From: Polyangiaceae bacterium
Lineage (GTDB): Bacteria > Myxococcota_A > Polyangia > Polyangiales > Polyangiaceae
Direction of reading: 5' to 3'
Assembly (NCBI GenBank): GCA_016712345.1
Contig: JADJRH010000002.1
Coordinates: forward strand, 136,466 to 200,465
Length of the DNA stretch: 64,000 bases
The position numbers and the translations under genes are program-made. Below are positions 11,046-58,189 of the stretch, piece after piece. Under the pieces are notes generated by a model. It did not search any database. It was given only the letters and a program-made list of their open reading frames with translations, and had not been told where the DNA came from. The first letter of the stretch is position 1; every line of letters begins with the position of its first letter.

Positions 11046-11567
11046 ATGATGTTCCGCTCGATCGTTCGCCCCCTGTTCGTTGCTCTCTCGCTCGCGTTCG
11101 CTTCTTCCGTTGCTGCGCCCGCGATGGCCGACGACGCCGGAGACAAAACGGCTGAGCACGGCAAGGGGAAGGGACACGGCAAGGGCAAAGGCGAAAAAGG
11201 CAAAAGTGATGATGCGAAGGGTGAAAAAGGAAAAGGAAAAGGAAAGGGACACCGCCGCATCGAGCTGCCGATCAGCGCCGACAAGTTCACCAAGGCGGTT
11301 GATAACCGACTCGATCGCGCCAAGACAAAGCTGACGAATGCGCTTGCGAAGAGCAGCCTTTCTGAAGCCGAACGCAAGCAGATCTTGAAGGACTTTGACA
11401 CCGGTGCCGACGCGGTGCGCGCTGCGACCAAGGCGGCTGTGAAGGACGGCAACGTTTCAAAAGACGAGGTTAAGGCGGTTCGCACAGCGGTCCGCAACTT
11501 GAAGACCTCGCTTGAAAGCAAAATGCCCAAGAAGGCTGAAAAGGCTGAAAAGGGCAAAGACGTCTGA
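11046..11567 (+). CDS. Secreted Lys/Gly-rich low-complexity protein (173 aa) with a signal peptide
   Basis: ATG at 11046 is preceded by AAGGAGA. The sequence MMFRSIVRPLFVALSLAFASSVAAPAMA is a Sec signal. GKGKGHGKGKGEKGK repeats are followed by a coiled-coil-like region. Confidence 0.6.
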   Translation: MMFRSIVRPLFVALSLAFASSVAAPAMADDAGDKTAEHGKGKGHGKGKGEKGKSDDAKGEKGKGKGKGHRRIELPISADKFTKAVDNRLDRAKTKLTNALAKSSLSEAERKQILKDFDTGADAVRAATKAAVKDGNVSKDEVKAVRTAVRNLKTSLESKMPKKAEKAEKGKDV

Positions 11568-11715
11568 GTACACACCAATCCAAACGGCGCGTCCTCCACC
11601 CATGCAAACGCGGCTCGTGCAATGCGGGCCGCATCCTTCAGCCGAAACCCTTATGTGTACACATCCGCGTCTCTATACCGAGTGTACACCATGAACTTGT
11701 CCCCCTTCGCTCCGT

Positions 11716-26694: not shown

Positions 26695-27405
26695 GTGAAC
26701 CACCCGCTCCGACGTTGGAATGCGGCACTTCTGCCGATCGCACTTGTTCTCTTGGGCGCTCAATCCGCTCTTGCGGACGAGCCTCCGCCCGCCGCCGCGT
26801 CCAGTCTACCCGTCGCCGCATCCACACCACCCGCTGTTGAAAACAAAACCGCTGACGGGAAGGTATTGGACAACGGTCAAAAAACGCCCGACCCAGCCGA
26901 AGTGGAGCGCCAAAAACTCCGCTTTGTGGTGGGAGTTGGGATTTTGGGTACACTCGGCGTTTCACCCAATGTGGGGTTTGGCCTTCTTGCCCACGCTGAA
27001 GTCCGGCGTTCAATATGGTCTGTAGGCCTTGAAGGGCGTTTGGATGTACCCATTCCCGCGCCGCTTGACGGTGGAGGCAACCTCGTTACAACCCTTGTGA
27101 CGGGCCGAGTGACTCCATGTCTCCACATGAGTGTGCTTTTTGGCTGCGCCGTTGTTTCAGTCGGGGCGCTTTTTGGTTCCACAGACGGTGTTGCCAATCC
27201 GGCCAAACAAACAACCCCATTTGTATCGGCCGGCCTGAGGTTTGGTGCCAATTGGGCGGTGTTGCCAAAGCTCCACCTTCGCGGTCAATTCGACGCGGAG
27301 GCCACCCTCACGCCAACAACGTTTATGGTGGACAACCTGCCTGTGTGGACAACGTTGCCTTTTAACGGCTCTCTCACTTTTTTGGCGTTGGTTCCTTTTC
27401 CGTGA
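26695..27405 (+). CDS. Secreted hypothetical protein, possibly a small outer-membrane beta-barrel
   Basis: Signal peptide (LLPIALVLLGAQSALA) and alternating hydrophobic beta-strand-like segments. Weak. Confidence 0.45.
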   Translation: MNHPLRRWNAALLPIALVLLGAQSALADEPPPAAASSLPVAASTPPAVENKTADGKVLDNGQKTPDPAEVERQKLRFVVGVGILGTLGVSPNVGFGLLAHAEVRRSIWSVGLEGRLDVPIPAPLDGGGNLVTTLVTGRVTPCLHMSVLFGCAVVSVGALFGSTDGVANPAKQTTPFVSAGLRFGANWAVLPKLHLRGQFDAEATLTPTTFMVDNLPVWTTLPFNGSLTFLALVPFP

Positions 27406-27460
27406 CGCTTTGGCGGGTTGAGTGAGTTGAGTTGAGTGCGGGAGCGATTGGAATCAGGCG

Positions 27461-29539
27461 TTATCCGCACTGCCCATTGGGTAGGCAACGTTCACCCACG
27501 GAGCACGCGGTTCCGTTGCAAGAGCACGTGCCGTTTGCCACTGTGCATGTGAACGTACCCGCGGTGCCGGCGTTGCAATCGGCATCGCCGTCACACCGGC
27601 AGCCGCCTGTATTGCAGACAAATCCGGCGGGACAAGCGTGTCCGCAGGCGCCGCAGTTTTGAGCGTCGGTCTGTAGGCTGAAACAGCCTGTAGGTGTGGC
27701 GCAGCAGGTTTGACCGGCCGCACACGCGGCGCCGCCGGCGCACGAACACAGATTGCCGGCGATGCAGGATTCACCCTGTGCGCACTGCGTGCCGCCGCCG
27801 CAGAAGCAAAGTCCGTTGTTGCAAAACCCCGTTCCGCCGTTGGAGCACTCTTGGGTGCTTGAACACCCGCAGAACTTTTGCGTACCACCTTGGTCACACT
27901 CAAAACCGTTGATTGTGCCGCCGAGCATGTCACAGTTGTTTCCACAACCGCCGCAGTTGGCTTCTGCCGAGGCGTTTTGGTTGGCGTCGAGAGTGGCTGT
28001 TTCACAGCCGTTGTCGTTTTGCGGGGCGGCGGGTTGTGTACAGTTGCCAAACCCCAAGTCACATGTGGAGTCACACAGTCCGGCGGTGCAGTTTCGCGAT
28101 GCAACGTTGTTGCCGGAACACGCGCGCCCGCAGCCGCCGCAGTTGTTGATGTTGGTGGCGGTGTTGGTCTCACACCCGTCGGCGAGATTGCCGTTGCAGT
28201 TGCCAAAGCCGTTGTTGCAAGTCACAGAACACATGCTGTTTGAGCACGTGCCGGTGCCGTTGGCCGCGCCTGCGCAGACGGTTCCGCACATGCCGCAGTT
28301 GTTGGCATTCGTTGTGGTGTTGACTTCACACCCGTCACCCGCCTGGTTGTTGCAGTTGGCAAATCCCATGTTGCAGTTGCCCATGGCGCACATACCCATG
28401 TTGCAACTCGCCGCAGCGTTGGCAAACGAACAGGCTTGTCCGCACATACCGCAGTTGGAAGTGCTTGTTTGAGTGTTGGACTCACAACCGTTTGCAACCA
28501 TGTTGTCGCAATCGTCAAACGGCGCTGTGCAACTCTGAATTAGACACATTCCGGCCATGCAGGCCGCTGTGGCGTTGGCCGGATTGCATGTCTGACCACA
28601 CCCGCCGCAATTTTGAAGGTCTGTACCGGTGTTGGCTTCACACCCGTTATTGAGGTTGTTGTCGCAGTTGCCAAACCCCGCATTGCAGTTGATTGCGCAC
28701 TGGCCGTTATTGCAAACCGTTGTGCCATTGGCCCCGTTGGGACATGCGTTGTCGCAGGCTCCGCACGTTGTTGCGGAGTTGTCGAGGTCGGCTTCACACC
28801 CGTCGGCGGCGTTGTTGTTGCAGTCTTCAAAACCGTTGTCGCAATTGGTGATCACGCACATGCCCATGTTGCACTGGGCGTCGCCGTTGGGAGCGTTGTT
28901 GCAGCTTGTGCCGCACATTCCACAGTTTTGATTGGTGGTGAGGGGCGATTCACAGCCGTTTTGGGGGTTACCGTCGCAATCTCCCATGCCGTCCGGGCAT
29001 TGGGTTGTGCATTGGCCGTTTACGCAACTCTGGTCTGCAAAACACTGGACTCCACAGCCGCCGCAGTTGTTTACGTCGCTCGCGGAATTCACTTCACAGC
29101 CGTTTTCATCGGAGTTGTCGCAGTTTGAAAAACCGCTGTTGCAGGCGCCGATGATACACATTCCTTGTGTACACTCTGGTGTTGCGTCGGCCAAATTGCA
29201 GGCGTTTCCGCAGGCTCCGCATTGAGCAACGGTGTTTGAAATATCCACTTCACACCCGTCGTCGGGTGAGCCGTTGCAGTCGCGGAAGGTGCCATTGCAA
29301 CTGCCCACGGCACACGCCCCTTCTGAACAACCGGGCTGTGCATTGGCCGTGAAACACGGTGCACAAGTGGCATCGCCGCAGCCGAAGGTGGGATCTTCAA
29401 TGGATACACACGCGCCGTCGCAGAACGTTTGCCCTATGGAGCAGGTGTCGAAAACGTCAAAGTCTTGTGTACACCCGGCTCCGAGCAGGTAGGCCACCGC
29501 AAAAGCGAGCAAAAGTACGGAATAATGGCGCGTCTTCAT
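27461..29539 (-). CDS. Secreted/lipoprotein Cys-rich repeat protein (Myxococcus-type cysteine-rich repeat, about 15 tandem units)
   Basis: Repeated C-x3-G-x-C-x(3-6)-C-x2-GF-x-(D/N)-C-(D/N)-x4-(D/N)-GCE units (for example CIIGACNSGFSNCDNSDENGCEVN). N-terminal signal MKTRHYSVLLLAFAVAYLLGAGC. Confidence 0.85.
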   Translation of the reverse strand: MKTRHYSVLLLAFAVAYLLGAGCTQDFDVFDTCSIGQTFCDGACVSIEDPTFGCGDATCAPCFTANAQPGCSEGACAVGSCNGTFRDCNGSPDDGCEVDISNTVAQCGACGNACNLADATPECTQGMCIIGACNSGFSNCDNSDENGCEVNSASDVNNCGGCGVQCFADQSCVNGQCTTQCPDGMGDCDGNPQNGCESPLTTNQNCGMCGTSCNNAPNGDAQCNMGMCVITNCDNGFEDCNNNAADGCEADLDNSATTCGACDNACPNGANGTTVCNNGQCAINCNAGFGNCDNNLNNGCEANTGTDLQNCGGCGQTCNPANATAACMAGMCLIQSCTAPFDDCDNMVANGCESNTQTSTSNCGMCGQACSFANAAASCNMGMCAMGNCNMGFANCNNQAGDGCEVNTTTNANNCGMCGTVCAGAANGTGTCSNSMCSVTCNNGFGNCNGNLADGCETNTATNINNCGGCGRACSGNNVASRNCTAGLCDSTCDLGFGNCTQPAAPQNDNGCETATLDANQNASAEANCGGCGNNCDMLGGTINGFECDQGGTQKFCGCSSTQECSNGGTGFCNNGLCFCGGGTQCAQGESCIAGNLCSCAGGAACAAGQTCCATPTGCFSLQTDAQNCGACGHACPAGFVCNTGGCRCDGDADCNAGTAGTFTCTVANGTCSCNGTACSVGERCLPNGQCG

Positions 29540-29629
29540 GAGTAAGCCTCAAAGGAGTCGGCACAACGTTGAAAGAAGAAAACGGCCCGGCGCTCAGCTC
29601 GGTGTACACGTGGTTGAGATGCTACCGCC

Positions 29630-30322
29630 CTACGGAGCGAGCTTGTAGCCGTACCCGTAAACCGTAAGAATATGTTCGGGTTTATCGGGGGATTTTTCGA
29701 CTTTTTTGCGAAGTTTTACAATGAAGTTGTCAACGGTGCGATTGGAGGGATTGCCATCAATCCCCCAGATTTTTTGCAAAATCTCTTCGCGACTGACCGG
29801 TTGACCAATGCGCTCGTTGAGCAGGCGAAAAAGTTCAACTTCGTAAAACGAAAGTTGGCTTGTTTTGCCACCTCGAGTGAGGGTGTGCGTGGTCAGATTG
29901 ACGGTTGTTTGACCAATGGAGAACGTTTCGGGAGTTGTTTCATTTGGGCGCGCCGCGCGGCGGAAAATGGCTCGAATGCGCGCAATGAGTTCACCCACGC
30001 TGAAGGGTTTGGTCACGTAGTCGTCTGCGCCCGCATCAAGCCCGCGGATTTTATCAACCTCTTGGCTCCGCGCGGTGAGCATTAAGATCGGGACAAACGC
30101 ATCCCACCGGCGCAACTCTTCACACACTTTGAAGCCGTTGGTGTCGGGCAACATTAAGTCGAGAAGAATGGCGTCGGGCTTGTGCAGCTTTGCGAGCACC
30201 ACGCCGTCTTTGCCCTTATTGGCTGAAACAACCGAAAACCCCTCAAATTCAAGAGCATCGGTGAGGCCGAGCACGATGTGCGGCTCGTCCTCGATAATGA
30301 GGATCTGTTTCTTGGCCGTCAC
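29630..30322 (-). CDS. OmpR/PhoB-family two-component response regulator (orphan, GTG start)
   Basis: Receiver motifs ([24 protein letters not shown]...K) plus a C-terminal winged-helix ([15 protein letters not shown]). No adjacent histidine kinase. Confidence 0.85.
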
Positions 30323-30426
30323 GCGCCCTTCGTTACACGCATCGCGCCGCGGAGCGAAGAGGCAAACGCGCGTTTCGGTTTTGTGGCAATGCACCACTGT
30401 TGGGGCACCCGAGGTAGGCTCGGCAT

Positions 30427-31476
30427 GTGACTTTGGTTGAAATCGCCGCGTGCCAAGTACACGTCACCGCGGCCGACTACGTTTCGGAAGACAGTTTTGC
30501 CGCGATGCTTGAAAGGCTTGGCAAACGCCTTGTTCGAGCGCGCGCCCGCGATGAAAAAGGAAAACCGCTTCACCCGTGTTTGGTGGTTTTCCCCGAAATG
30601 ATCGGAACGTTTTTGCCAATGGCCGGGCGCTCGCGCGTGATCGGCAGCGCAAAAACCACCGATCAGGCGCTCACCCGCGTGGCGTTGCGATCGCTTCCGA
30701 GCGTCGTCGCGGCCATGCGCAAAGGGCACACGCTTTCAACAAAAGTGGGGTTTTTGTTGGCCGCGGCGCCCGAGGTTCGGCGCATTTATCGGTCGGCGTT
30801 TTCGGCATTTGCCAAAGAGCACGGCGTTTGGACGGTGGCGGGAAGTGTACTCTTACCTCGAAATGTACACGGCGAAACCGCCGATGTTTTTGAGCCTCAG
30901 GATGGGCGTGTGTACAACACGTCGTACGCGTTTGCGCCGGATGGGCGGCACATCGGGGCGACGCGCAAGGTGAACTTGGTGCCCACGCTCGAGGACACGC
31001 TTGGACTGTCGCCGGGTGAGGCTCGGGATATTGAGCCGTTTGAGACGCCGTTTGGCGGCGTGGCAACGTTGATTTGTTACGACGGCTTTTTGGTGCCGCA
31101 CACGCGCGGCGAGCCCCACTTTACGCGGCTTGTGCCCGCGTGTGATGCGCGCGGTGCGAGCGTTGTGGCGCATCCGGCGGCCAATCCGTGGGCATGGGAA
31201 GAGCGTTGGGTGTTTGCCGAAGAAGGTGAACGGCAGCTTCGAAAAGAGCAGTGGCAATGCGAGGGGATCTTTGCGTCGCTCGGCGGCGGGCGCTTTTCAA
31301 ACGTGAAATACGCAGTGACAGCGCATCTTGTGGGCGACGTTCTCGACAACCACTTTGAGGGGCGTTCGCAGATTTTGGAGCGCACAGAACACGGAGTGAA
31401 CGTGATCGCCGAAGCTGCGCGCGCGGGATCGACGCGCGCGGACGAAGAAGTGGTGCTGCGCGCGGTGGAGCTTTGA
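30427..31476 (+). CDS. Carbon-nitrogen hydrolase (nitrilase superfamily) protein
   Basis: VVFPEM (catalytic Glu) and LICYDGF (catalytic Cys), with nitrilase-like spacing. The real start may be the internal Met near 30505. Confidence 0.7.
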
Positions 31477-31547
31477 GACAGAACGATGCTGACTGTTGGG
31501 AGCCTTGACGTGGAAGCGTACGCCTCGTGACGAAGCACCCCAAATAA

Positions 31548-31633
31548 ACGTGTACACAACAAATGTACGCAAACAAATGTGTACGCAGTTGATATGTACA
31601 CAATGGATGTGTACGCAATAGATGTGTACGCAA
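31548..31633 (+). repeat. Six tandem 14-15-bp repeats (RATGTGTACRCAAYN) between convergent gene ends
   Basis: cgtgtacacaac aaatgtacgcaaac aaatgtgtacgcagtt gatatgtacacaat ggatgtgtacgcaat agatgtgtacgcaatt, read directly. Each unit contains the TGTACRC core of the genome-wide enriched octamer. Confidence 0.75.
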
Positions 31634-33370
31634 TTATTTTCGAAGCGCGTCGCGCCCGAGATGAATCACAAGCACGAGCGCGCCGAGCACAAATAGAACC
31701 ACCGCAAGCGTGTGGTTTGTTGTGTACACAATTGCGCCCGACGGGACGGTTGCAAGCACGAGCAGGCCGGCGAACACGCGCGCGCTCGCTTTGTCGGCGG
31801 CGGGTTTTACCTGCGGATCGTTCACCACAAGCGAGAGGCGTCCGAGCCTTAAATCGTCGAGGATTTCACGCGTGAGGGGCGGCAACTCGTACGCGGCGCC
31901 GCTGAGCCTTTCAACCCCGCGGTAGAGGTCCATTGTGAGGCGTTCGGGCGAATAACGCTTTTTGAGGAGATCCAAAAAGTAGGGGCGGGCTTCACCGTAC
32001 ACATCGAGATCGGGGTCGATCTCTTTGCCCACACCTTCAACGGTCATGAGCGCTTTGCCAACGAGCAAAAAGTCGGGCGGAATTTCTAAGCCGTATTTGG
32101 TGGCGCCGTACACAAGGTCGCCGATCATCGCGGAGAGGTTGATCTCTTTGAGCGGCTTTCCAAGGTACTTTTCGCTGAGCATGGCGACTTCGGCTCGGTA
32201 GGCCCGCATGTCGACTTTTTTGGTGGGTGTGGCGATCGCGTAGAGCGCGTCGGCAATGCCCACGTAATCTTGGCGAACCGCTGCAACCATGAGATCCACC
32301 GTTTTTTCGCGCATCTCAGGCGAAAGGCGGCCAACCATTCCGAGGTCGATAAACCCGATGTTCGGCTCTTCGGGTGTACCCATGATGAAAAGGTTGCCGG
32401 GGTGGGGATCGGCGTGAAAAAAGCCGTCTTCGAAGATCATCTTGATGATGATCCCCACGGAGATTTTGGCGATTTTGGGGCCTTCAAATCCGCGGGTTTT
32501 GACGGCGTCGTAGATCTTGTAGCCGTCAAAAAATTCGAGCGTCAAAACGCGGTTGGTGGTGGCTTGTTTGTACACCGTGGGAAAGCGCGCCACGCTTTTG
32601 CCGCTGAAGTTTTTGCTGAAGCGCTCGGAGTGTTCGGCTTCAAGCTTGAAGTCGAGTTCGCTCGTGATCGCTCGGTCAAACTGATCAACGAGCGCAACGG
32701 GGGAGTAAATTTTCGACTCGAGGATCGTGCGCTCGATGAGCCCGGCGAGCATGTGCAAAAGCTCCAGATCGCGAACGACGGTTTCTCGCACGCTCGGGCG
32801 TTGCACTTTGACGACCACTTGTTTGGGGCCGCTTTCGTGTTTGAGAACCGCGCGGTGTACCTGGCCGATGGATGCGGCGGCGAGCGGCTTCTCATCAAAG
32901 CGATCAAAAATGTCGGCGATGGGCGCGCCGAGCGATGACTCAACGGCGCTTTTGATCTCGTCGAATGGGAGCGGCGTGACTTCGTCCTGAAGTTTTTTAA
33001 GTTCACGAATCCAGTCGGCGGGGAGAATGTCGGGGCGCGTGGATGCGATTTGGCCGAGCTTCACGAACGACGGGCCGAGATCCATGAGCACGAGGCGGCC
33101 GCGTGCGGGCAGCGAGATCGTGCGCGCTTCTTTTTCACCGCGTTCGGCTTCGGACTCGGGAACGGTGAGCGCGGCGGCTTCTTCACCGAGCAGTTCTGCG
33201 CCCGACGTTTTTGAGGGCAACGCGGCGGGCCCCTCGACGTGTGTACCTTTCTTCTTGGCGCCGCCGAAACCGAGGCGCTGCGCGATCTCGCCGAAACCGT
33301 GCCGCACGAGCACGAGGTAGATTTGGCGCAGTCGATTGAGGTCGCGAACGGCTCCGAGGATCGACGGCAT
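31634..33370 (-). CDS. ubiB: UbiB/ABC1 family atypical protein kinase (ubiquinone biosynthesis regulator) with a C-terminal TM segment
   Basis: ASIGQVHRAVL...VVVKVQRP and ADPHPGNLFI motifs. The start is set at MPSILGAV, because the ORF-track N-terminal extension is arginine-rich reading of the opposite-strand GC-rich frame and overlaps the upstream gene. Confidence 0.85.
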   Translation of the reverse strand: MPSILGAVRDLNRLRQIYLVLVRHGFGEIAQRLGFGGAKKKGTHVEGPAALPSKTSGAELLGEEAAALTVPESEAERGEKEARTISLPARGRLVLMDLGPSFVKLGQIASTRPDILPADWIRELKKLQDEVTPLPFDEIKSAVESSLGAPIADIFDRFDEKPLAAASIGQVHRAVLKHESGPKQVVVKVQRPSVRETVVRDLELLHMLAGLIERTILESKIYSPVALVDQFDRAITSELDFKLEAEHSERFSKNFSGKSVARFPTVYKQATTNRVLTLEFFDGYKIYDAVKTRGFEGPKIAKISVGIIIKMIFEDGFFHADPHPGNLFIMGTPEEPNIGFIDLGMVGRLSPEMREKTVDLMVAAVRQDYVGIADALYAIATPTKKVDMRAYRAEVAMLSEKYLGKPLKEINLSAMIGDLVYGATKYGLEIPPDFLLVGKALMTVEGVGKEIDPDLDVYGEARPYFLDLLKKRYSPERLTMDLYRGVERLSGAAYELPPLTREILDDLRLGRLSLVVNDPQVKPAADKASARVFAGLLVLATVPSGAIVYTTNHTLAVVLFVLGALVLVIHLGRDALRK

Positions 33371-33381
33371 GGCGGGCCAAT

Positions 33382-34931
33382 CTAGCGCACGCGGATGACG
33401 GTGCCGAGTTCTGTGGGCGTGGGCATCACCGCGGTCCATCCGGCGGGCAATCGAGGCCCGGTCCACCAAAAGAGGCGCTGCGCGTCGAGCGGGGCGAGGT
33501 TGACGCACCCGTGGCTGCGAACGTTGCCGAACGAGCGGTGCCAATACGCCGCGTGAAGGCCGACTCCTTTGGAGAAAAACTGCGGATACGGAACGCTCTC
33601 CATGCGGTAGTAGCGCGACGCGTTTTCGTCTTCGAGGTTGTCCATGTCGGTGGCAAGCAGCTTGATCCAAATGCGATGTGTACCCACAGGCGTGGCGTTG
33701 GCGGTTTTTTGTTTGCCTTTGCCGGTGGACACGAGCGTTGCAAAAATGGGCTTTTTGCCTTCGTAAGCGACGAGCGTTTGGCTGGGGAGATCGATGTCGA
33801 TCCACTTTTCGCCGATGTCGGCTTTCACCTCGGGAGGAGGATCGACGACGGAAGGGCGGCGCACATCTTTGGCCGCGATCCACTGTGAATCGCCGATGCG
33901 CAAAAAGCGTTTGTCGGGCGACTCGGCAAGCACGCGCACGAGATCGAAACGCGACTTGGATTGGCCTGTGTACACACCACCGGGCGATTTGAAAGTGCGC
34001 GCGTGTTCGGGCAAGACCCACGCAAACGGCAGCGCGCCCGATGTTGGAAGCGTGTGTACACCTGGTAATGTCTCGCCGGTGAAGAGCGATGGGCGCGACG
34101 GGCCGAGGTCGCGCATGGGTACCCAGAGGTTGTGGGAGGTGCGACCGTAAAGCCCGCCGTCGAAGTTTTTTTCTTCAATGATGGCCACGGCAAAGCCCGG
34201 ATCGAGCTGCATTGCCGGCTCGCCGATGTCGACCGATTCAAGCTTTTTGTAAGCCTGCGAGCCGTCGGGCCCAACGAAGTAGTAGCGGTAGGGCAAACCG
34301 TTTTTGGGATCACCGAGGGTGTGGAGGCCCGCTGCGATGGGGTCGTTGCCCGACAATTCAAGCGCGCCGTCGCAGATCCACGCGAACGGGCCCACGTTGA
34401 TGTAGCGGCCGTCACACCCGGGGCCCTGGCGCGCTGCGTACACAGGAAGGCGTGCCTCGCGGCCGGCGGATCCGCGCTTTTTGGCGTTTTTTGAAGGGCC
34501 GGCGAACACCGGCTCGTCGGCGCGGAGAACGCGTACACTTTTGGCCCACGAGGGAAGCGGCACGTCGCCGGAAACCACCCACGGACCGAGCGCGTTGAAT
34601 GGCGTGGCGGCCGATGCGCTCGGTGCGGACGACGACGCCGACGATGCGCTGGATGCGCTCGCAACGGCGGGGGATTGAGTGAGCGGCGAAGGTGTGACGG
34701 AGCCTTCGGCGTGCGCGTGAGCGGTGATGCTCAGCGCTGCGAGGGCCGCGAGGACAACGCTCGGTGGCTGGTGTTTTTCTACTGCGCGCCCCGCTGACGC
34801 GTCATTGCGTAGCTTCCGGTGCTCAAATACACAGAGTATGTTCCGCTCCGGGTCTCGCTCGGACGCGTGATCGGGGCTGCTCGTTAGGAAAAACAGCAGC
34901 CACCTACGGGCGGTAGGAGAAGCGGACTTCA
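33382..34931 (-). CDS. L,D-transpeptidase (YkuD/ErfK family) with an N-terminal signal anchor
   Basis: C-terminal SHGCVNLAPLDAQRLF catalytic motif and an N-terminal hydrophobic segment SVVLAALAALSITAHAHA. The only in-frame start is the ATG at 34931. The long ORF-track extension to 35940 is an artefact. Confidence 0.75.
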
Positions 34932-36367
34932 TGATCGCAGATGCGGAACATGTCGCCCTCGGCAATGGCTTTTCGAGCGATGCGCTGGCCGTTGTACTCG
35001 ACGCCGTTCGTTGAGCCCATGTCGACCATGTAGAACTGGCCGTTGAGGAACTCGACCATCGCGTGTTGGCGCGACACGTTGGGGTCTTTGATGGTGAGGT
35101 CGCTCGACTGTTTGCCACGGCCGATGATGAAACGGTCTTTGTTGACCGGGAATTTCTGACCGCCGTAAAAAGCGTGCAGCGACGGCATTCCGCCGGCCAT
35201 GGATTGGGGCGGGGGCGGTTGCTGCGCGCCGAAAGGCGGCGGCGTTTGCATGTTCGGCGGTTGAAGCGGAGGCGGCTGCATGGGCGGCGGCCCGGCCTGC
35301 ATAGGCGGCGGTGCCGGGGGCATGGGCGGCGCCGGAGGCATGGGCGGACCTTGGCTCGGCATACCGGGTGGAGGCGGCACCATCGGCGGCCCTCCCATAC
35401 CCATAGGAGGCGGCCCACCCATAGGAGGCGGCCCGCCCATTGGCGGATGTCCGCCCATCGGCGGGGGACCACCCATCGGCGGGGGACCACCCATCGGCGG
35501 AGGTTGCATTGGCGGAGGGCCACCCATAGGCGGCGGCGTGGGCATGCCGACGCCGCCGATTGGCGGCGGGGGGGCCGGAGCGTACGCACCGGTGGGTGCC
35601 CCGGGCGGAGGAGGAGGTGGCGCGGAGCCGGGACCGCGACCCGGTGCGCCCACGGGCGGACGCATGGTTCCACCGGGAGGCGGCGGCGGGGGCGGGGCCA
35701 TTCGGCCGCTCGGCGGCGGGGGCGGCGGACGAACACCCATGCCGGGGCCCGGTCCGGGGCCGGGAGCGGGAGGCGGCGCAGGCACGCTCGGGCGTTTGGC
35801 GCCCATTGGTGGAGGCGGCGGAGGCGGCGGAGCACCACCCGGCCGCGGGCCGGGAAGGGGAGCCATGCCCGGAATCGGCGGCGGTGGTGTGTACGCACCG
35901 GGCACACCGGGAGGCGGCGGGGGCGGCGGCACAGCTCCAAAGCCCTGCGGCGCGGGAGGCGGCGGCGGCACCGGCGGCTGACCGGTGGGAATCATCGGCG
36001 GGGGCGGCGGTGCGCCTGGATAAGCGCCCGACATTCCACCCGGGGGAGGCGGGGGTGGCGGCACCGCTGCGTTTGGCGGCGGCGGTTGTTGAAATCCGTG
36101 CGGCGACGGCGGCGGGGGCGGCATTCCACCGCCGGGCGGCTGCGGAATGGCGTGCGGTCCAGATCCGGGCGCCTGTCCGTCGCGCGTATTTCCGGGGAAC
36201 GGCGTTCGCGGGCTGTAACTCCGCTGACGCGCGTATTGCTTCATCGACTCGTTGATCAAGTAGTCGATCGAGCATTCAAGCTCACGCGCCATCTGCTCGA
36301 ACGTCTCCCACAGGACGTCCCGGCACTGAAAAGTCCGTGCGCTCTTCTTGTTGGGATCCGCACTCAT
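34904..36367 (-). CDS. Three-part protein: N-terminal ribbon-helix-helix-like domain, about 300 aa of poly-Pro low complexity, C-terminal FHA domain
   Basis: N-terminal RTFQCRDVLWETFEQMARELECSIDYLINESMKQYA fits the RHH beta-alpha-alpha pattern. C-terminal FIIGRGKQSSDLTIKDPNVSRQHAMVEF...GSTNGVEYNG is an FHA core. Confidence 0.7.
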   Translation of the reverse strand: MSADPNKKSARTFQCRDVLWETFEQMARELECSIDYLINESMKQYARQRSYSPRTPFPGNTRDGQAPGSGPHAIPQPPGGGMPPPPPSPHGFQQPPPPNAAVPPPPPPPGGMSGAYPGAPPPPPMIPTGQPPVPPPPPAPQGFGAVPPPPPPPGVPGAYTPPPPIPGMAPLPGPRPGGAPPPPPPPPMGAKRPSVPAPPPAPGPGPGPGMGVRPPPPPPSGRMAPPPPPPPGGTMRPPVGAPGRGPGSAPPPPPPGAPTGAYAPAPPPPIGGVGMPTPPPMGGPPPMQPPPMGGPPPMGGPPPMGGHPPMGGPPPMGGPPPMGMGGPPMVPPPPGMPSQGPPMPPAPPMPPAPPPMQAGPPPMQPPPLQPPNMQTPPPFGAQQPPPPQSMAGGMPSLHAFYGGQKFPVNKDRFIIGRGKQSSDLTIKDPNVSRQHAMVEFLNGQFYMVDMGSTNGVEYNGQRIARKAIAEGDMFRICDHEVRFSYRP

Positions 36368-38226
36368 TTCTTCTCGTCCTTTTTCGGCTCGTCCTTTTTC
36401 GGCTCGTCGGGCTTGGGCGCGTCTTTCTTAGGCTCGTCTTTTTTCGCCTCCGGCGCCCGGTCAAGCATCGCCGGCTCAACGCAGTACTTCACAAAGTCAC
36501 CAACCGTTTTGATGTCTTTTTGCTCGCGCTCTTTCGGATCTTTGGCGCCCTCTTTTGCCACTTCACACACCCACTTGCAGTCGGGATCGGCGTCACATGA
36601 GGGCGCCTGCGTGGAGTCGGATTCGAGGCCTTTTACCTGGTCGATCTGCGTTTTGTTGCCAAGCGTCAGATAATAAGAAAGTGCGGTTGTTCGAACGACA
36701 CCCGGCCCCGACGTGAGGTGCTTCTTGAGCGCCTCGACAACGTTGCCCTCTTTCAGTTCGCCGATGAGCGCACCGTACGTGATCGCTTCAGCCATGGCGA
36801 AGTTCTTGCCGTCGGGAGGCAGTTTCCCCATGAACTCGTCGATGTGTTTCACCGTGCTCATCTTCAGCACGGTGCCGGCGGCCACGCGCCGCACCTTCCA
36901 TTTGTCCTGCTTGAAGATCTCGTAGAGCTTGTCGACAACTTGGTCGCGCGGCATTTCGCTCGCGCGCCTGAACGCGAGATCGAGCACGTTGTCGGGCGCA
37001 TCCGATTTGGCGATGTCGAGCACGCGCTTGATGTCTTCGGGATTGCCGCGTTCCAACCGGCCTTCGAGCGCCGCCAGAGCCGCCGTGCGCCGCTTTTCAA
37101 CCTGCTCTTTTCGCAGATCCCAAAGAGCCTGCGCCGTTGCAGCCTTTTCTTTGGTTTCTTTGTCTGCCTTTGCATCGGCGTTGTCGGGACGTTTGCCCAA
37201 ATCAGGCCCCTTGTTTCCCGCGAAATCGAGGCAGAAATCGATTGCCGGCCGCCCGCCCACTTTTTTGAGCGAACCGAACGCACGCATCAACTCTTCACCT
37301 TGGTAGGTGAGAAGCTGCATTTGAAATTGGTCCGGCGTGGGCTGCAACTTGGAGGCCGCGTTTGCCGCTTCAAGCTCCGGCTTTTTCACCTTCGTCCACT
37401 CGTCGGACGACACATATTTTGCAATCCCCACGAGCGCTGCCGACGCCGCGTCTTTGGTTTTTGCGTCGCCGAGTTCAGCCACCAACGTGGCCATTTGATC
37501 AAGCCTTCGCGTTTCACGCGTCATCAACTTGGGCAGGCCCGCCACCGCCGACGGACCGATAAAACGGAGCAGCTGCTCCATGCCGTAAAGCTGCGAGCGG
37601 TTGTCGAGCCGATGCTCAAAATCGGCCATTGCCCAATCCACAAGCGCGGTCTTCAAATTCTGCTTCAGCGCTTCATCGGTGATGATGTTTCGCTCTGAAA
37701 TCAGCATCGCATGCGCCGCGTCTTTGTACGGAAACGACGGGTCGGGCGGCGATGGCTGACCGGCCTGCGCAACCGGCGGCGCTTTCTTCAGCTCGTCGAT
37801 GATCAGCGGCACGAGCGACGCCACCACTTGCTGGCGAGTGTCGGTGCTCACCGCGCCCAGCGCTTCGACGAATGTGCGCTTGCACGCTTCGAGATCACCG
37901 TCTTGGTCGATCTGCGAAAACGCGGGCCGCCGGCCCGATCGCGGCTTCATTCGAATCAACGCCAGTGTGGCCTCGACGCGCAGCGCCACATCGTATTTGT
38001 CGTGCACCAAAACAGCGCACAACTTCCGCGGGCCTTGGCTTGTGGTCTCCCAACGATGAAGGTCATTTTGGTCAACACGGCACCCCGCCAAAAGCGGGGC
38101 GGCGCTAACCGCAAGCACCGTTAAGAGCCGCGGTGCGAAGCGAGATCGCGGTCGTGAAGTGTTCGGCGTGCGAGCCGCCGCTTCCTCGGATGCGCGACCT
38201 CCCCTGATTCGTTCGACAGTTGCCAT
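36364..38226 (-). CDS. Hypothetical alpha-helical lipoprotein (620 aa) with a Lys-rich KKDEPKK C-terminal tail
   Basis: Start at MATVE. Lipobox LLAGC. The ORF-track extension to 40305 is GC-rich antisense reading of ftsK. The stop overlaps the FHA gene by 4 nt. Confidence 0.65.
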   Translation of the reverse strand: MATVERIRGGRASEEAAARTPNTSRPRSRFAPRLLTVLAVSAAPLLAGCRVDQNDLHRWETTSQGPRKLCAVLVHDKYDVALRVEATLALIRMKPRSGRRPAFSQIDQDGDLEACKRTFVEALGAVSTDTRQQVVASLVPLIIDELKKAPPVAQAGQPSPPDPSFPYKDAAHAMLISERNIITDEALKQNLKTALVDWAMADFEHRLDNRSQLYGMEQLLRFIGPSAVAGLPKLMTRETRRLDQMATLVAELGDAKTKDAASAALVGIAKYVSSDEWTKVKKPELEAANAASKLQPTPDQFQMQLLTYQGEELMRAFGSLKKVGGRPAIDFCLDFAGNKGPDLGKRPDNADAKADKETKEKAATAQALWDLRKEQVEKRRTAALAALEGRLERGNPEDIKRVLDIAKSDAPDNVLDLAFRRASEMPRDQVVDKLYEIFKQDKWKVRRVAAGTVLKMSTVKHIDEFMGKLPPDGKNFAMAEAITYGALIGELKEGNVVEALKKHLTSGPGVVRTTALSYYLTLGNKTQIDQVKGLESDSTQAPSCDADPDCKWVCEVAKEGAKDPKEREQKDIKTVGDFVKYCVEPAMLDRAPEAKKDEPKKDAPKPDEPKKDEPKKDEKK

Positions 38227-38379: not shown

Positions 38380-41300
38380 ATGGACGAGGACGTATCTACC
38401 GGCCTCCCACTCGAAATGGCCGTTTCGCTCCTTGCCCCTCGAACCCCGATCGCCCCCGAAAGTGACGGCGAAGCCGCGCCTTTGGCCGAGCCGGAACCCA
38501 AGCCCACGCGAAAAAGGCCTTCCCCCAAACCTAAAAGTACGGCGAACGACCTTCCACAGGGCAAACGCACGGGCGCAAAGTCTCCCCGCTCCACCAAGAG
38601 CGCTGCCGACGAAACCGCGGCAAAGTCGGTCGGCGATTCTGCCGCCGACAAGCCCGCCCCGACGCCCGCTCCCAAAGGTGTACACGCGTACGCCCGCGAA
38701 GCCGCCGCGCTCCTTCTCATCGCGTCGGCGCTCTACATCAGCCTCGCGCTTGCATCGTTTAAAGCCGATCCGCTGCGGATCGAGGTGACCGGCGCCGATT
38801 GGGTCGGCCCCGTCGGTGCCGCATTCGCCGGCCTTCTTGTTGAAACCGTCGGCGCGTGCGCGTGGCTCGTGCCCTTGGATCTCGCTCTTTTTGCAACGCC
38901 GCTTCTCCAAGGCCGCCCTGCCAAAGTGACGTTTCCGCGCATCGCGGGCGATCTCGTTGTGCTCGTTGTTGTCTCCGCGCTCCTTCACGTGGCGTTTCCA
39001 AAAACAACCGCGTTCGGTGCCATGCCGCTCGGCGGTACCTCGGGCGAACTCTTCGGCGAAGTGATGCGCGCGCTCTTTTCGACGCTCGGCTCGTACATCG
39101 TCGGCCTCACCGTTGTGTCGCTCATTCTCATCGGCCGCGCGGCGTTTTCGATCATCGACTGGGCGCAGCGCGCCGAACGCCGCGCGCGCGCGCTCGGCGA
39201 AAAAGGTCACGGTGGTTTGCGAGCGCTTGTCGGCGCGTGGGATCAAGCGCGCGCGCTCGATGAACAACGCCGCGAAGAAGAGCGCAAAGCCTCGGAGCCG
39301 GTGATCACCGAAGCGTGCGACGAAGCGATCTTCGCCGCGCTCGGCGATGAATCGCCGATGCCATTTCCGCGCGTCAAACCGGTGTTGCCGGCGAAGGCGA
39401 AAGCCGCGCCGCTCGTTGTGAACAACGAGCGCGCGGCGTTCGCCGCGCCCGCCGCGATCGCTCCAACCATCGCGATCGCATCGCCGTCGCTCGCATCGCC
39501 GTCGCTCGTCGCCGCGCCGAAAGTCGCCGCGCCGATCGCGATCGCAACGCCGCCGGTGAACGTACCGTCGATTGCCGCCGCGTTTCCGGAACCGCCGCTT
39601 GCCGACGCCGATGCCGAGCGGCGCGCGCGCGCCGAAGCGCCCACACCTTCGCCGGTGGTTGCGGCGGCGGCCCCTGAAAAGAAGCGCGGCCGCAAAAAGA
39701 ACGATGCTGCAAACAACGCCGCCGCACCGATCGTCGAAGCCGCCGCCGCGCCGATCATCAACGCGATGGTGGATCTCGCTGCTCCGGCGGTCGGCGCGCG
39801 CGCGCCCGACCTCGATCTCAAGAGCGACGAAGCGATCGCCTTCGCCGCCGATTCGGGCGACGCCGCCGATTTGGACGATGCAAACGCCGAAGCGTCGTTT
39901 GTCGACGAAGCGGCGGCCGGCGCTTTCGAATTGGATCTGACGGGTGATCGCAACAACGTTTCGCGGAGCGGCGAGGCGGCGCCGAAAGCGGCTCCGCCGC
40001 TTTCGGCGCCGCCCGCCGCGGTTCGCGCGCCAATTGCCGCAGCGCCGGCCGCCCCCGTTGCGCCCGCCGAGGCCGAAGTGAAAATTGTGGACACTTCCGC
40101 CGCGCTCGAAGCCCAAAAGCCTTCGATCTTGGTGAAAATTGTTCCAGCGATCGGCGAAGGCTTCCGCCTGCCGTCGCCCAGCCTCCTCGATGAAGCTCCC
40201 GGTGGACGTGTACACATCGACGAAGACCAACTCAAACAGACAGCCGTTCAGCTCGAAAAGGTGCTCGCCGACTACGGTGTGAACGGCAAGGTTGAAGAGA
40301 TTCACCCCGGGCCCACCGTCACAACGTTTGAAGTGTCGCCCGCCGCCGGCACCAAAGTTTCAAAAGTGGCCAGCCTTGCCGACGATCTCGCGCTCGGCCT
40401 TTCACGCAAAGTGCGCATTGTGGCGCCGATTCCAGGCAAAAACCGCATCGGCTTTGAGATCCCCAACGAGCGCCGCATGCCGGTTGTCATGCGCGAACTC
40501 GTTGAAGACAAACGCTTCTTGGACATGAAAGCGCCGCTGCCGTGTGTACTCGGCCGCGACATCATCGGCGCGCCCTATTTTGCCGACCTCGCGAGCATGC
40601 CCCACGTGATCGTTGCGGGCGCCACCGGCGCGGGCAAAAGCGTCGGCCTCAACGTCATGCTGGTGAGCCTTCTTTATCGGCGCACGCCCGCCGAACTCAG
40701 GCTCCTCATGATCGACCCCAAGGTTGTTGAGCTTGCTCCTTTCGACGGCATTCCGCACATGCTTTTGCCTGTTGTCACCGACATGAAACAGGCATCCAAC
40801 GCGCTCAAATGGGCCGTTGATGAAATGGAGCGCCGCTATCAACTCTTCGCCAACGCGGGCACGCGCAACATCACCACGTACAACGGCTGGGCCGAGCGTG
40901 TACGCAAAGGCGAAATCAAAGCACCCAAAAAAGCGCTGCCGAAAACGGTTACGGCAGTGGCTCCCGATGGCACCGACGTGGACATTCCCGCCTCGGCCGA
41001 CGACCCCGAGTTGCCCGAAACGCTTCCGTGGATCTTGATCGTTGTCGACGAATTCGCCGACTTGATGATGCAGCAGGGCAAAGACGTTGAAGCGAGTGTT
41101 GCGCGCCTCGCCCAGAAAGCGCGTGCCGCCGGCATGCACGTGATCTTGGCCACGCAGCGGCCGAGCGTCGACGTGATCACCGGCATGATCAAAGCCAACT
41201 TCCCCACGCGCATCGCGTTCCGTGTCGCTCAAAAAGTCGACAGTCGCACCATCCTCGACGAGCAGGGCGCCGAACACCTCCTCGGTCGAGGCGACATGCT

Positions 41301-44004: not shown

Positions 44005-47000
44005 ATGGCAGAGCGGGCGGTTGACCTCCCGAAGCCGCAGCCCGACGACGCCGAAGACGTCGTGGATTGGCTGTCGACCGCCCGGGCCTTGTGGGCTCGC
44101 GGCGAACGCGGAGATGCGCTCGTGTGGCTGCGTCGCGCCGCCGAGGCCGCAGCCCAAGCCGGCCAACCCTTCAGGGCTTCTGAAATTGGGATGTACGTCA
44201 CGGCGATCGAAGAAATGTTCGCCGAGCCAACCCCCAAGCCGGCCGACACCGTGCGCCCGGCCGCCGCAGATCGCCCGCCGCACGACACACTCGTCGATCC
44301 ATCCGAAGCGTTCGGTGCGCTCGCCGGTGAAGTGTTGCGCAAGCAGCTCAACACCATTGAGGTCGATCTCGATGACACCTTGGCCGAAGACAGCTCGCCC
44401 GATCTCTTTCAAGAAACAGCGGCGCTCGGTCCGGCCATGGTCGCGCGCGTCGCGCCTCCTTCTGAAGCCAAAGGCAAACCCAAAGCGCCACCGCCGGCTC
44501 CGCGTGATGTGACGTCGCCTCTCGCCGCTCAAGCGCCGGCGCCGCGTGAAGTGCAGCCGCCCAAAGTGATCGTGCAGGTTGCCAATACGGCCGCGGCACC
44601 CGCGTCCTCCCCACCCAAAAAATCTGCCTCTGTGCGGGCTCCCGCGGCAAAACCGTCGTCGCCGCCGCCTGGATTTTTGCCGGAGCTTGCGCCGCCGCGC
44701 GGCGAAGACGGTGAAGAAACAACGCTCGTGACGGGTACACTTCGCGGCGCACTTCAAAAAGCAAACGCGGCACCCGCATCGGTTGGAACGTCGCCGCTCG
44801 CTTCCACCCCGGCTCCTCCGCAGGTGCGCGTTTCGTCCTCGGCAATGCCGCCGCCTCCTCCTTCAATGGGGTCACCGTCGCTCAATGTGCCGCGGCCTCC
44901 GCCAACACCTCGGGAGGACACTTTTTCGGCAATGCGCAGCGCATCGACGGCACCCGCTGTGAAGCCGCCGAAGCCATCGAGCGCACCGCCGCCGCCGCCG
45001 TCCAACACGCCGCCGCCCGCGCGCCAGCCGCTGCCTTCTTGGTCCGGTGTTGGGCTCACCGGCAATGTGCGTACACCCACGCGCCGGCCACCCAAGCCGC
45101 CCCGAACGCCGATCTTAGATCCGTGGGCCGAAGAAGAGATCGCCGCCGCCCGGCCTCTTCCGCCCATTCCTCCCGCGCCCAAAACCGGCACCGAAGAAGT
45201 GGTTGTGGTGCGCGCGCGATTTCCCTCCATTCACGAAGACGACGATGTGTACACATCGGCCGCGCCCCTTCCCGCCGCGCTTCGTCGACAGGCGCCGGCC
45301 GCTCCACCTGCGCCCCCGGCTGCTCCACCTGCGCCCCCAGCCGCCGCGCCCTCATCCCCGCAAGCCGCCGTGCCGCCCGCGCCGCCCGCGCCGCCCGCGC
45401 CGCCCGCACCTCCGCCTCCGCCTTCCGTCGCGACTCCGCAGGCCGCCGCACCTTCCCAAGCGGTTGCGCCGCCACCACCGGCTCCGTTCGCTCCGGCCCC
45501 GTCGGCTGTGCCTCCCGCTCCGACTGTATACAGCTCCACACCAATTCCGCCTGCCCCGCCGGCTCCCAAGCCCCGCACACCCGTTCCCGGCCGACTGCCC
45601 AACACCGCCGACATTGTTCCCAAGGCCGATATCGCGCTTGCAGACGCTGCTCCCGCCTCGGTGCCACCGCCCAAAACCGATGTTGCGCCGAAGTCGGTGC
45701 CACCGCCCAAAGGGGCCAATCGCAAGTCGGCGCCACCGTCCAAATCGGATGTTGCGCCCAAATCGGTGCCGCCGCCCAAAGAGGCCAATCGCAAGTCGGT
45801 GCCACCGCCCCGGCCGGCCGCCGTGGTCGTCAGTTCTGAAACTCCTGTGCTCGCGCCCGGCAATGTTTCCAAACCCGAGAGTGCCGGTACAGAAGTAAAA
45901 CTCCCTCCCGATTCTCCAACGCTGCCCACCGGCAAGTCGTTTATCGAAAAACTGCGCCCGTCATCCACAGGCAGTATTCAAAGAGCGCCGGCCGCGAAGC
46001 CCTCGGCCCCGGCTTCCGCGCCGCCGTCCAAAGCTTCCACTGCCGCTGCCCCCGCCCCGGCGCCGCCACCTCCACCTTCCCAAGCTCAGCCCGTATCCAC
46101 GCCACCCGCAAAAGCATCTGTACCGGCGGCCCCCGGCTCTTCGCCGCCCCCGAAAATGCCTTTTGCCCCCGCGGCATCTCCCAAGTCGGTCGCGCCCGCT
46201 TCCATTTCCGCCGTCCCCGCATCCAAACAAGCGCCCACCTCCGCGGCAACACCCGCCAAGTCGGCGGCGCCCAAACCTGCACCCATGAGCCGGCCCTCTC
46301 CGTCGGCCTCGTCGGTTGTGGCCGCGGGCCCGCCGTCACCTGCCGCAGCGCCCTCAGCCCCCAAACCTGACTCCACCCCCACTTCCGTCGCCGCACCTAC
46401 CCCTGCGGCTCCAAAAGTGCCGCGCCCGCTCACTGTGCGCCCACCGCCTCCAGCCGCACCTGACACTGGCAAGTTGACACCCGACGCTGGCAAACTGACG
46501 CCTGACACTGGCAAGTTGACACCTGACGTAACCAAGTCCACACCTGATATTGCCAGGTCGGCATCCGACATTGCCAAGTCGACACCTGACATACCCAAGT
46601 CGGGATCTGACATACCCAAGTTTGACCCGGCCCGCGCCACTCTACCCATGATGCTAGAAGTGGAGCCCATGCCGGTGGACGTACCCTCCATGCGCGCAAC
46701 CCTACCCATGCCGCTGGAGCTGCCCAAGCAAATTGAAGCCTATTTTGAGGCCCAGGCGCAAAACCCCGTTCTTGTGGAAGGCGTTCGACTTGACCAGGTA
46801 GACCTCTTTGAAGGATTGCCCCGCCCCGCGCTCGAAACGCTCGCCTCCGCCGCGCGGGTAGAACAGCTCGGGCTCGACGAAGAAACGCGCGGCTTCGGCG
46901 CGGCGCTCTTGGTATCCGGTTCCGCTGCCTTGTGCGCCACATTTGTGGATGTCCCCGCTCATTGGGCCAAACCCGCCGAACTCCTTGTTGCCCGAGGCTC

Positions 47001-47517: not shown

Positions 47518-47584
47518 GGCTACCGGGTAGATTCTCGCAAGGCACTTTTCTGCTACACTGAGGAAGATCGAGGTAAGAAGCAGA

Positions 47585-47803
47585 ATGTTAGCAAACCTGG
47601 CCGAGGCCGCCTTGAAATGGCCCGACTTCGTGACTGCGGTTCTCCGCGGTGAAGCCGTTGAACTTGTGGGGGATGACGGTACAACCGTACGCCTCGTGCC
47701 CGAAGTGAAGCACGCGCCAAAATTCGGGAGTGCACGGGGGTTGATTGAAATGGCCGATGATTTCGACGCGCCGCTCGAAGACATGGCAGAGTACATGAAA
47801 TGA
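47585..47803 (+). CDS. vapB: Type II antitoxin VapB (DUF2281/YefM-like, DDFDAPLED tail)
   Basis: 72 aa with the C-terminal GSARGLIEMADDFDAPLED motif typical of antitoxins paired with PIN toxins. It overlaps vapC by 4 nt. Confidence 0.75.
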   Translation: MLANLAEAALKWPDFVTAVLRGEAVELVGDDGTTVRLVPEVKHAPKFGSARGLIEMADDFDAPLEDMAEYMK

Positions 47804-48186
47804 GGCTGCTGCTCGATACCCACGCTTTTCTTTGGTTCGTGGCAGGAAGCTCTCGCCTGTCAACGACGGCGCGCGCCGCCATTGAGGCCCGCGAAAATGA
47901 GCGATTTCTCAGTGCTGCGAGCATCTTCGAAATGGCCGTCAAGATGAGCTTGGGCAAGCTTACAGTTGGATTGCCCATCGAAGAGCTACTCGGTCGGGAG
48001 CTAGCATCGGGAGGCTTTGCGCTTTTGCCCATCGAGATCCGCCACGTCGGCCAACTCGCCTCGCTACCGTTTTACCACCGCGATCCATTTGACCGGTTGC
48101 TTGCAGCACAAGCCCTGGTCGACGCACTCATGTTCGTCAGCGCGGATGAGGCATTCGATTCCTACGGCGTTCAGCGACACTGGTGA
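47800..48186 (+). CDS. vapC: Type II toxin VapC (PIN-domain RNase)
   Basis: LLLDTHAFLWF (first acidic residue), a further conserved acidic position, and C-terminal DPFDRLLAAQA...SAD motifs of the PIN fold. 128 aa. Confidence 0.85.
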   Translation: MRLLLDTHAFLWFVAGSSRLSTTARAAIEARENERFLSAASIFEMAVKMSLGKLTVGLPIEELLGRELASGGFALLPIEIRHVGQLASLPFYHRDPFDRLLAAQALVDALMFVSADEAFDSYGVQRHW

Positions 48187-58168: not shown

Positions 58169-58189
58169 GGTACACTTGCTCCAACAACC

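Follow-up and report, generated by a model that had tools for sequence, protein, structure and literature searches.

Within a 64,000-nucleotide stretch of the Polyangiaceae contig JADJRH010000002.1 (the window), the spacer between a convergent C-N hydrolase gene and a ubiB gene carries six direct repeats that form the densest cluster of sites for an octameric palindrome, GTGTACAC (hereafter the word). The explanation that we consider best, and that we put forward tentatively, is that a hyper-abundant word seeded this array, which would be a non-coding minisatellite specific to the lineage, with a possible hairpin or 3'-end effect on the flanking transcripts. The evidence base is one genome, set against loci of its relatives. 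The features of the locus, in window coordinates, are the following.

29630-30397: gene for an OmpR-family response regulator with a winged-helix output domain, 1.1 kb from the array.
30427-31476, + strand: C-N hydrolase gene (PF00795, E 1.5e-10), start codon uncertain, stop codon at 31474-31476.
31542-31549, + strand: A-rich left flank of the array, AAATAAAC, which reads GUUUAUUU on the - strand after unit 1.
31550-31633, + strand: whole array, six direct units with the core TGTACRCAR.
31551-31559, + strand: core of unit 1, TGTACACAA, which with G31550 makes up the sole complete GTGTACAC of the array.
31564-31572, + strand: core of unit 2, TGTACGCAA (ATGTACGC), 13 bp past unit 1, with diverged flanks.
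31576-31635, + strand: homogeneous sub-array of units 3-6 in a 15-bp register, the last unit overlapping the ubiB stop codon.
31608-31642, + strand: terminator-like element found by a consensus scan, in which units 5 and 6 form a 10-bp stem with a 5-nt loop, followed by ATTATTTTCG.
31634-33385, - strand: UbiB/ABC1 kinase gene (PF03109, E 2.1e-72), start approximate, stop codon at 31634-31636.
31717-31732: orphan unit-like site within ubiB, TTGTTGTGTACACAAT, 88% identical to unit 4.

A sequence-only reading of this DNA had reported a six-unit tandem array at 31548-31633 between the two convergent genes, and the array is indeed present there. On the + strand, positions 31540-31640 read ccaaataaacGTGTACACAAcaaaTGTACGCAAacaaatgTGTACGCAGttgataTGTACACAAtggatgTGTACGCAAtagatgTGTACGCAAttatttt, and a repeat search places the starts of the six TGTACRCAR cores at 31551, 31564, 31580, 31595, 31610 and 31625, i.e., with steps of 13, 16, 15, 15 and 15 bp. 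The array has been called precisely periodic, which is overstated, the strict 15-bp register being restricted to units 3-6; likewise, the repeat unit then proposed, RATGTGTACRCAAYN, is perfect in two of the six units. Tandem Repeats Finder returns a main row at 31564-31634 (period 15, 4.7 copies, 78% matches, score 84) and an overlapping row at 31541-31587 (period 16, 3.1 copies, score 48). The array occupies the right half of the spacer between the CN_hydrolase and UbiB stop codons, which is convergent as described and measures 157 bp, not 158 bp. The C-N hydrolase gene ends 74 bp ahead of the array, the ubiB stop codon adjoins unit 6, and the UbiB C-terminus (...DALRK*) agrees with that of relatives. 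The GC content of the array is about 40%, vs 59% for the 64-kb window. Its neighbors are the CN_hydrolase, UbiB, response regulator and YkuD genes; apart from the OmpR-type response regulator, no rep, par or DNA-binding gene lies beside it.

The six units are not equivalent. Units 3, 4, 5 and 6 read aatgTGTACGCAGtt, gataTGTACACAAtg, gatgTGTACGCAAta and gatgTGTACGCAAtt, respectively, and are mutually about 80-90% alike, units 5 and 6 having 14 identical nucleotides; the flanks of unit 1 are unlike those of this homogeneous group. The 9-mer TGTACRCAA occurs 20 times in the window, vs 0.5 expected from shuffles, and five of these 20 copies lie within the array, unit 3 falling outside this pattern because it ends in G (TGTACGCAG). 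When the units are aligned on their core, mismatches affect 3 of 54 cells at the nine core positions vs 13 of 36 at the six flanking positions (Fisher P = 4e-4, or P = 0.004 after correction for picking the best 9-column window). Units 1 and 2, which have the core alone in common with the others and are irregularly spaced, account for most of this contrast; among units 3-6 by themselves, the difference between core and spacer mismatches is not significant. Regarding the octamer, whose core had been thought to sit in every unit, its enrichment across the window is borne out, but the complete form is found in unit 1 only: units 3, 5 and 6 contain GTGTACGC, and units 2 and 4 ATGTAC(G/A)C. The enriched G-N-GTACAC class includes four of the six units. 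The link between array and octamer is real but looser than claimed, most units being one-off variants.

As a repeat, the array has the head-to-tail arrangement, the period of at least 10 bp and the homologous units of a minisatellite or VNTR, with the particularity that units 1 and 2 share the core alone. The earlier proposal of a slippage-generated minisatellite agrees with the points that could be tested, namely the homogeneity of units 3-6, the absence of the spacer from relatives (see below) and the lack of a second copy of this spacer within the 64-kb window. Searches of plasmid and phage collections with the spacer gave no match. REP/BIME and MITE elements are a poor description of the array, given the lack of a second spacer copy, the confinement of information to 2 nt on either side of the octamer and the coding location of most word sites. 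No tRNA or small RNA was found at the array locus, no promoter-like site was found in 31000-32200, and Rfam gave no match at E <= 1 in 30500-32500 and none at the gathering score across the window.

The word is the most over-represented 8-mer of the window. It occurs at 25 sites in 64 kb, whereas dinucleotide shuffles predict 0.28 and a third-order Markov model 1.3, which corresponds to an approximately 20- to 90-fold over-representation. Among its one-off variants, only those changed at octamer positions 2 or 7 are enriched (GCGTACAC, 17 vs 2.7 expected; GAGTACAC, 13 vs 1.2; GGGTACAC, 14 vs 3.4), variants at the other positions being at expectation; these 44 additional sites bring the total to 69 with the palindromes. 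About half of the GTAC tetramers in the window are found in a word context. Around the octamer, information is confined to an A at +1 and a T or C at +2, leading to a 10-12-bp palindromic consensus, a-TGTGTACACA-t, with GTGTACAC as its core and tolerance at octamer positions 2 and 7. A longer, 16-bp consensus, CGATGTGTACACATCG, was considered and discarded, the information past +2 being close to zero.

Word sites are present in reading frames 0, 1 and 2 of the coding DNA, and shuffling of synonymous codons, with protein and codon usage fixed, does not account for them: 17 coding palindromes were counted vs 2.8 +/- 1.2 in the shuffled sequences, and 34 coding one-off sites vs 7.8 +/- 2.5, so that word sites stand about 5-fold above the codon-shuffle expectation. 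Intergenic DNA, which makes up 8.9% of the sequence, holds 7 of the 25 copies of GTGTACAC (about 3-fold enrichment, P = 0.005). Sites cluster in each of the two large convergent spacers (11568-11715 and 31477-31633), and a third convergent spacer, 27406-27460, contains no copy. The asymmetric variants have no strand preference (24 vs 20), and outside its BREX/Pgl island the window has a site about every kb.

Some individual copies deserve to be recorded. In the convergent spacer at 11566-11689, between a 274-aa ORF and a glycosyltransferase gene, GAGTACAC overlaps a stop codon and two perfect copies of GTGTACAC, 27 bp apart, pair as an 8-bp stem. At 1538-1561, in coding DNA for a Ser/Thr kinase, GTGTACCC is present twice, 16 bp apart, within a perfect hairpin, and at 38678-38693, in coding DNA as well, GTGTACAC abuts GCGTACGC.

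The word is scarce in the right-hand part of the window, where a defense island is located.

47531-48186: small cassette of two genes bordering the BREX island, the last of them encoding a PIN-domain protein; probably a toxin-antitoxin pair.
48202-63975, - strand: type 2 BREX/Pgl island, with PglW (which runs off the window end), the PglX methyltransferase, PglY/BrxC, PglZ, BrxD and BrxHI.

In the 14.5-kb block between 47.5 and 62 kb, none of the 25 palindromes (P = 0.0016) and three of the 44 variants (P = 0.005) are found, and GTACAC is at background (5 vs 32-43 per 16 kb elsewhere). The GC content and the A/T-run density of the island equal those of the rest of the window. The BREX PglX is the sole DNA methyltransferase in the window, and characterized BREX sites have an A at position 5, as has GTACAC. 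A tie between PglX and the word was considered and kept as a lead only, since a self-methylation motif gives no reason for an enrichment and the island is itself devoid of the word.

Relatives provide the second line of evidence. Eight relative loci were compared (L001, L081, L082 and L203-L207), with UbiB proteins 83-87% identical to the one encoded here; they represent six close relatives with six distinct UbiB proteins, the two loci of each pair L203/L204 and L205/L206 carrying the same one. A UbiB scan with one genome per species returned only Polyangiaceae and other Myxococcota (best match 86%), and the best UbiB match in a large protein collection was 87% identical. The collections searched yielded no conspecific sequence, and two ORF products translated from the window had no record in them. 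The order of UbiB, convergent CN_hydrolase and response regulator is found in L081, L082, L205 and L206, and L001 has alignable CN_hydrolase and response-regulator genes as well, the neighborhood being kept in five loci; YkuD is found upstream of UbiB in both L081 and L207, and different genes lie downstream of UbiB in L203/L204 and L207. The space 3' of UbiB is variable, consisting of 1 bp, 19 bp, about 100 bp (up to 103) or a 3-kb insertion, and is GC-rich. The array is missing from all eight loci, and TGTACRCAA has just 13 scattered matches in 80 genome-contig loci.

The word, too, is rare in this company. Relatives contain eight sites of GTGTACAC in 975 kb, even though their genes align with those of the window at 64-82% nucleotide identity. 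Eight window sites could be aligned. The same octamer is found in a relative for two of them (33975, in L081 and L001; 35896, in L081), and for the six others the relatives have a different, GC-rich sequence (e.g., GCGCGCAC, GGGCACGC and GAGCGCGC) that differs by several substitutions, part of them synonymous and part not. Most window sites were created de novo from GC-rich ancestral sequence, with several substitutions per site, and the word enrichment is specific to the lineage. The orphan site in ubiB offers an example. This seventh copy of the 9-mer, 98 bp past the sixth, encodes AIVYTT--NHT where all three relatives have AWLLAAHVQET, and the word entered the coding sequence via a non-synonymous change and a 2-codon deletion. 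Positions 31716-31729 moreover match unit 1 and its flank (31550-31563) perfectly over 14 nt in inverted orientation. Templated copying of the word with its flanks was examined on this ground and abandoned: distant sites share matches of equal length, and that between unit 1 and ubiB is not significant.

The divergence from relatives has a clear direction. The relative loci have a GC content of 70-72%, vs 59% for the window, and over 27000-36500 (compared with L081, L001 and L082), 958 positions are G/C in L081 and A/T in the window, vs 218 in the reverse sense, which points to a recent change in mutation or repair in the lineage. As the relatives lack the array and the substitutions are directional, the spacer and its array are new in a lineage with a strong AT shift. 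Some word sites derive from GCGCGCGC-like ancestors through C>T/G>A transitions. CpG decay as the sole cause of the word was rejected, since sibling products such as GTGCACAC show no excess (1 vs 1.6 expected). Runs of A5/T5 are about 10-fold above the composition expectation throughout the window (e.g., 32221, 32533 and 36384-36444) and are explained in the aligned relatives by synonymous AT drift at Lys-Lys and Phe-Phe pairs (AAGAAG>AAAAAG, TTCTTC>TTTTTC); T-runs are thus common in the window as a by-product of this drift.

Beyond these relatives, a metagenome scan for arrays of at least three units returned at least 120 loci, and nearly all the matches listed are micro- or minisatellites that differ in composition and have no relation to the array. 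Metagenome loci with a GC content of 58-67% (L186, L194, L104 and L168) have no word enrichment and no tie to the lineage. One of them, a JGI metagenome contig with a GC content of 62% (L194, 2615-2652), carries three perfect copies of ATGTGTACACATTAC, i.e., the same 12-bp palindrome with a 15-bp period, apparently within a putative 222-aa ORF; the contig has no word enrichment elsewhere and we judged the resemblance coincidental. The window also contains tandem repeats of other kinds: Gly/Pro-rich 18/54-bp coding repeats in the N-terminal part of a YkuD-domain protein (35238-35537), a 15-bp unit repeated five times (CTCGTCCTTTTTCGG) at the 3' end of a 1313-aa ORF (36373-36450), and 21/42/69-bp coding repeats in a 1170-aa ORF (45295-46621).

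With a near-palindromic unit, direct copies are inverted copies too, so that transcripts from either gene can fold. The predicted RNA fold of the whole array consists of nested helices (unit 1 with 6, 2 with 5 and 3 with 4) with AAAUAAAC and AUUAUUUU on either side, the A-rich left flank pairing with the right flank; its predicted energy is -34.6 kcal/mol on the + strand (z -2.6) and -38.2 kcal/mol on the - strand (z -3.1). Any tandem array of near-palindromes would fold, and the z-scores are modest; the fold is therefore not independent evidence. The stem formed by units 5 and 6 contains four G-C and two G.U pairs (predicted -12.6 kcal/mol). On the + strand this hairpin, followed by AUUAUUUU, begins 132 nt past the CN_hydrolase stop codon, and its T-tract is partly the reverse complement of the final ubiB codons (CGA AAA TAA). 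On the - strand, the G.U pairs become C.A mismatches and the last hairpin ahead of GUUUAUUU reaches only -6.3 kcal/mol, which makes a bidirectional terminator a weak proposition. The number of terminator-like matches in the window, which does not exceed that of shuffles, and the abundance of T-runs through AT drift also count against a terminator. The array may nonetheless terminate transcription, and its likeliest local effect would be termination or 3'-end protection, in view of the + strand, where AUUAUUUU follows the 10-bp stem. The sequence-only reading had overlooked both this hairpin with its A-tract and T-tract flanks and the lineage specificity of the word enrichment.

From these observations, we infer the following course of events. 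After the lineage had split from 71%-GC relatives such as GCA_964268215.1, an AT-rich spacer would have appeared, and within it replication slippage or unequal exchange would have copied a word-carrying 15-bp unit head-to-tail. Whatever keeps the word at its density of about one site per kb, be it selection or biased repair or uptake, would also have retained or re-created the cores, while the bases between them drifted. Transcripts from either gene would then fold into a stem-loop at the array; the stem of units 5 and 6 with AUUAUUUU would most likely terminate the C-N hydrolase transcript or protect its 3' end, with a weaker effect on the ubiB transcript. Taken alone, the array is probably a small, near-neutral repeat.

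Other explanations have to be weighed against this scenario. One is that the array is wholly neutral, that is, a slippage product in a junk spacer whose cores resemble each other through recent duplication together with a mutational or repair bias toward the word. The uniform likeness of units 3-6 (about 80-90%), the novelty and variability of the spacer among relatives, the strong GC-to-AT drift (958 vs 218 relative to L081) and the terminator-like matches, which are not above shuffles in the window (37, 38 and 24 vs about 30), are all in line with it. However, simple recent slippage does not yield units such as 1 and 2, which share the core alone at irregular spacing, and the bracketing by an A-tract and a T-tract, with a location exactly at two stop codons, fits a 3'-end element. 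We consider complete neutrality rather doubtful as a full account of the locus, yet only slightly less likely than a terminator role. A dedicated protein-binding array, in which a dimeric protein reads the 10-12-bp palindrome and the array itself is selected, appears unlikely. In such a case the six sites would be a high-avidity nucleation, sequestration or organizing point for a nucleoid-associated, methylation-dependent or uptake/recombination factor. The dyad symmetry of the word, with its information falling outward from the center (A at +1, T/C at +2) in an operator-like manner, the better preservation of cores than of flanks, the unmatched site density of the cluster and the persistence of the word against codon usage, which implies that something acts on the word, all argue for a reader of this kind. 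Against it, SlmA/Noc/MatP/ParB-type systems have site densities far below the value of about one per kb seen here, a 15-bp center-to-center spacing is out of helical phase and leaves no room for 12-16-bp dimers on one face, and five of the six units are imperfect palindromes. Moreover, neither a rep/par gene nor a candidate binder is found nearby, the array sits at two 3' ends, and its absence from all relatives argues against a conserved function tied to the locus. The earlier idea of a nucleoid, partition or restriction-like factor finds no positive evidence here, the period being out of helical phase and no rep/par gene adjacent; as to the last of these factors, restriction sites are normally avoided in the host genome, not enriched as the word is.

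The neighboring response regulator calls for a separate consideration. Its gene lies 1.1 kb from the array, and OmpR-family proteins bind direct repeats, which could make the array a cis-regulatory target of this regulator (29630-30397) or part of an unannotated promoter or small RNA gene in the spacer. OmpR-type regulators bind repeats about 10-11 bp apart in promoters, however, whereas the repeats here are 15 bp apart at two 3' ends, and the region 31000-32200 contains no promoter-like site and no Rfam match. In addition, the response-regulator/CN_hydrolase pair is conserved in relatives without the array, which makes a target of this regulator unlikely; overall, we rate a cis-regulatory role as highly improbable. 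The minisatellite seeded on the word remains our preferred explanation, and the word is the broader subject to which it points. In a more ambitious proposal, which we regard as quite improbable at this stage, GTGTACAC (G-N-GTACAC class) would mark a self-recognition system of the HIP/DUS kind, of recent origin in one Polyangiaceae lineage. A machinery for uptake, methylation or short-patch repair would read the word and drive its spread, and the array would be the strongest site of this system in the window. If true, the six-unit array might be, e.g., a nucleation or sequestration point, and could be the bait for identifying the reader protein. With its six sites, the array would also make a convenient probe in assays of pull-down, methylation or transformation.

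Among known systems, the array resembles bacterial minisatellites and VNTR loci in its head-to-tail, non-coding 15-bp units, its identity of about 80-90% and its spacer variable between relatives; it differs from them in that its unit is built on a word enriched across the window, which units 1 and 2 keep alone. Plasmid iterons, ParR/ParG centromeres and MetJ metbox arrays likewise gather short, partly palindromic direct repeats within about 85 bp. Here, unlike in these arrays, no lineage-specific rep, par or regulator gene is adjacent and the repeats lie at two 3' ends; their steps of 13-16 bp depart from the helical phase (about 11 or 22 bp) of iterons and partition centromeres beside rep/par genes, and no plasmid or phage match was obtained.

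The closest parallels to the word are HIP1 (Highly Iterated Palindrome 1, GCGATCGC) of cyanobacteria and the DUS of Neisseriaceae or USS of Pasteurellaceae. Like HIP1, the word is an 8-bp palindrome whose over-representation is tens-fold, extends to every frame of coding DNA and goes beyond what codon usage explains, with enriched one-off variants, least tolerance at the central positions and short palindromic extensions, and in both cases a low frequency marks horizontally acquired DNA (PMC4390886, PMC5861425, PMC3497702). Within the 64 kb of the window, the word thus behaves as expected of a HIP-like octamer (more than about 15-fold over-representation, beyond codon usage and in all frames). 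It is, however, a different sequence in a different phylum (Myxococcota), and HIP1 is phylum-wide whereas relatives with 64-82% nucleotide-identical genes do not share the enrichment and have the same octamer at two of the eight window sites that could be aligned. Cognate GATC/CGATCG-type methyltransferases are a hallmark of HIP1, and the 64-kb window shows BREX PglX only. Two HIP1 papers that were searched do not contain the words 'tandem', 'terminator' or 'hairpin'.

With DUS/USS, the word shares a density of about one site per kb, evenly divided between the strands, coding and intergenic sites with an intergenic excess, and a lineage-specific 'dialect', as well as clustered self-complementary copies at gene 3' ends with predicted stem-loops and T-tracts. 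Intergenic DUS/USS are known as inverted repeats in terminators (bioRxiv 10.1101/2025.10.24.684340), a use that the hairpin proposed for the array would parallel. Density, lack of strand preference, intergenic excess, 3'-end copies and scarcity in an island are all found for the word, as for a DUS/USS-type sequence. DUS/USS are nevertheless non-palindromic 9-12-mers paired as inverted copies, whereas a palindromic core is repeated in tandem here; unlike DUS/USS, only about one quarter of the word sites are intergenic, and no competence genes were found in the window.

More than thirty years after HIP1 was described, the origin of such words is still debated. The array is in this respect a pointer, as the densest cluster of a palindromic word gained after divergence from relatives. 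Since this word is young and lineage-specific and has close word-free relatives, the substitutions that create its sites could be read directly, and gene content could be screened for the responsible machinery. In terms of its distribution in the window, the word behaves like HIP1 or DUS/USS, and by its sequence it belongs to neither.
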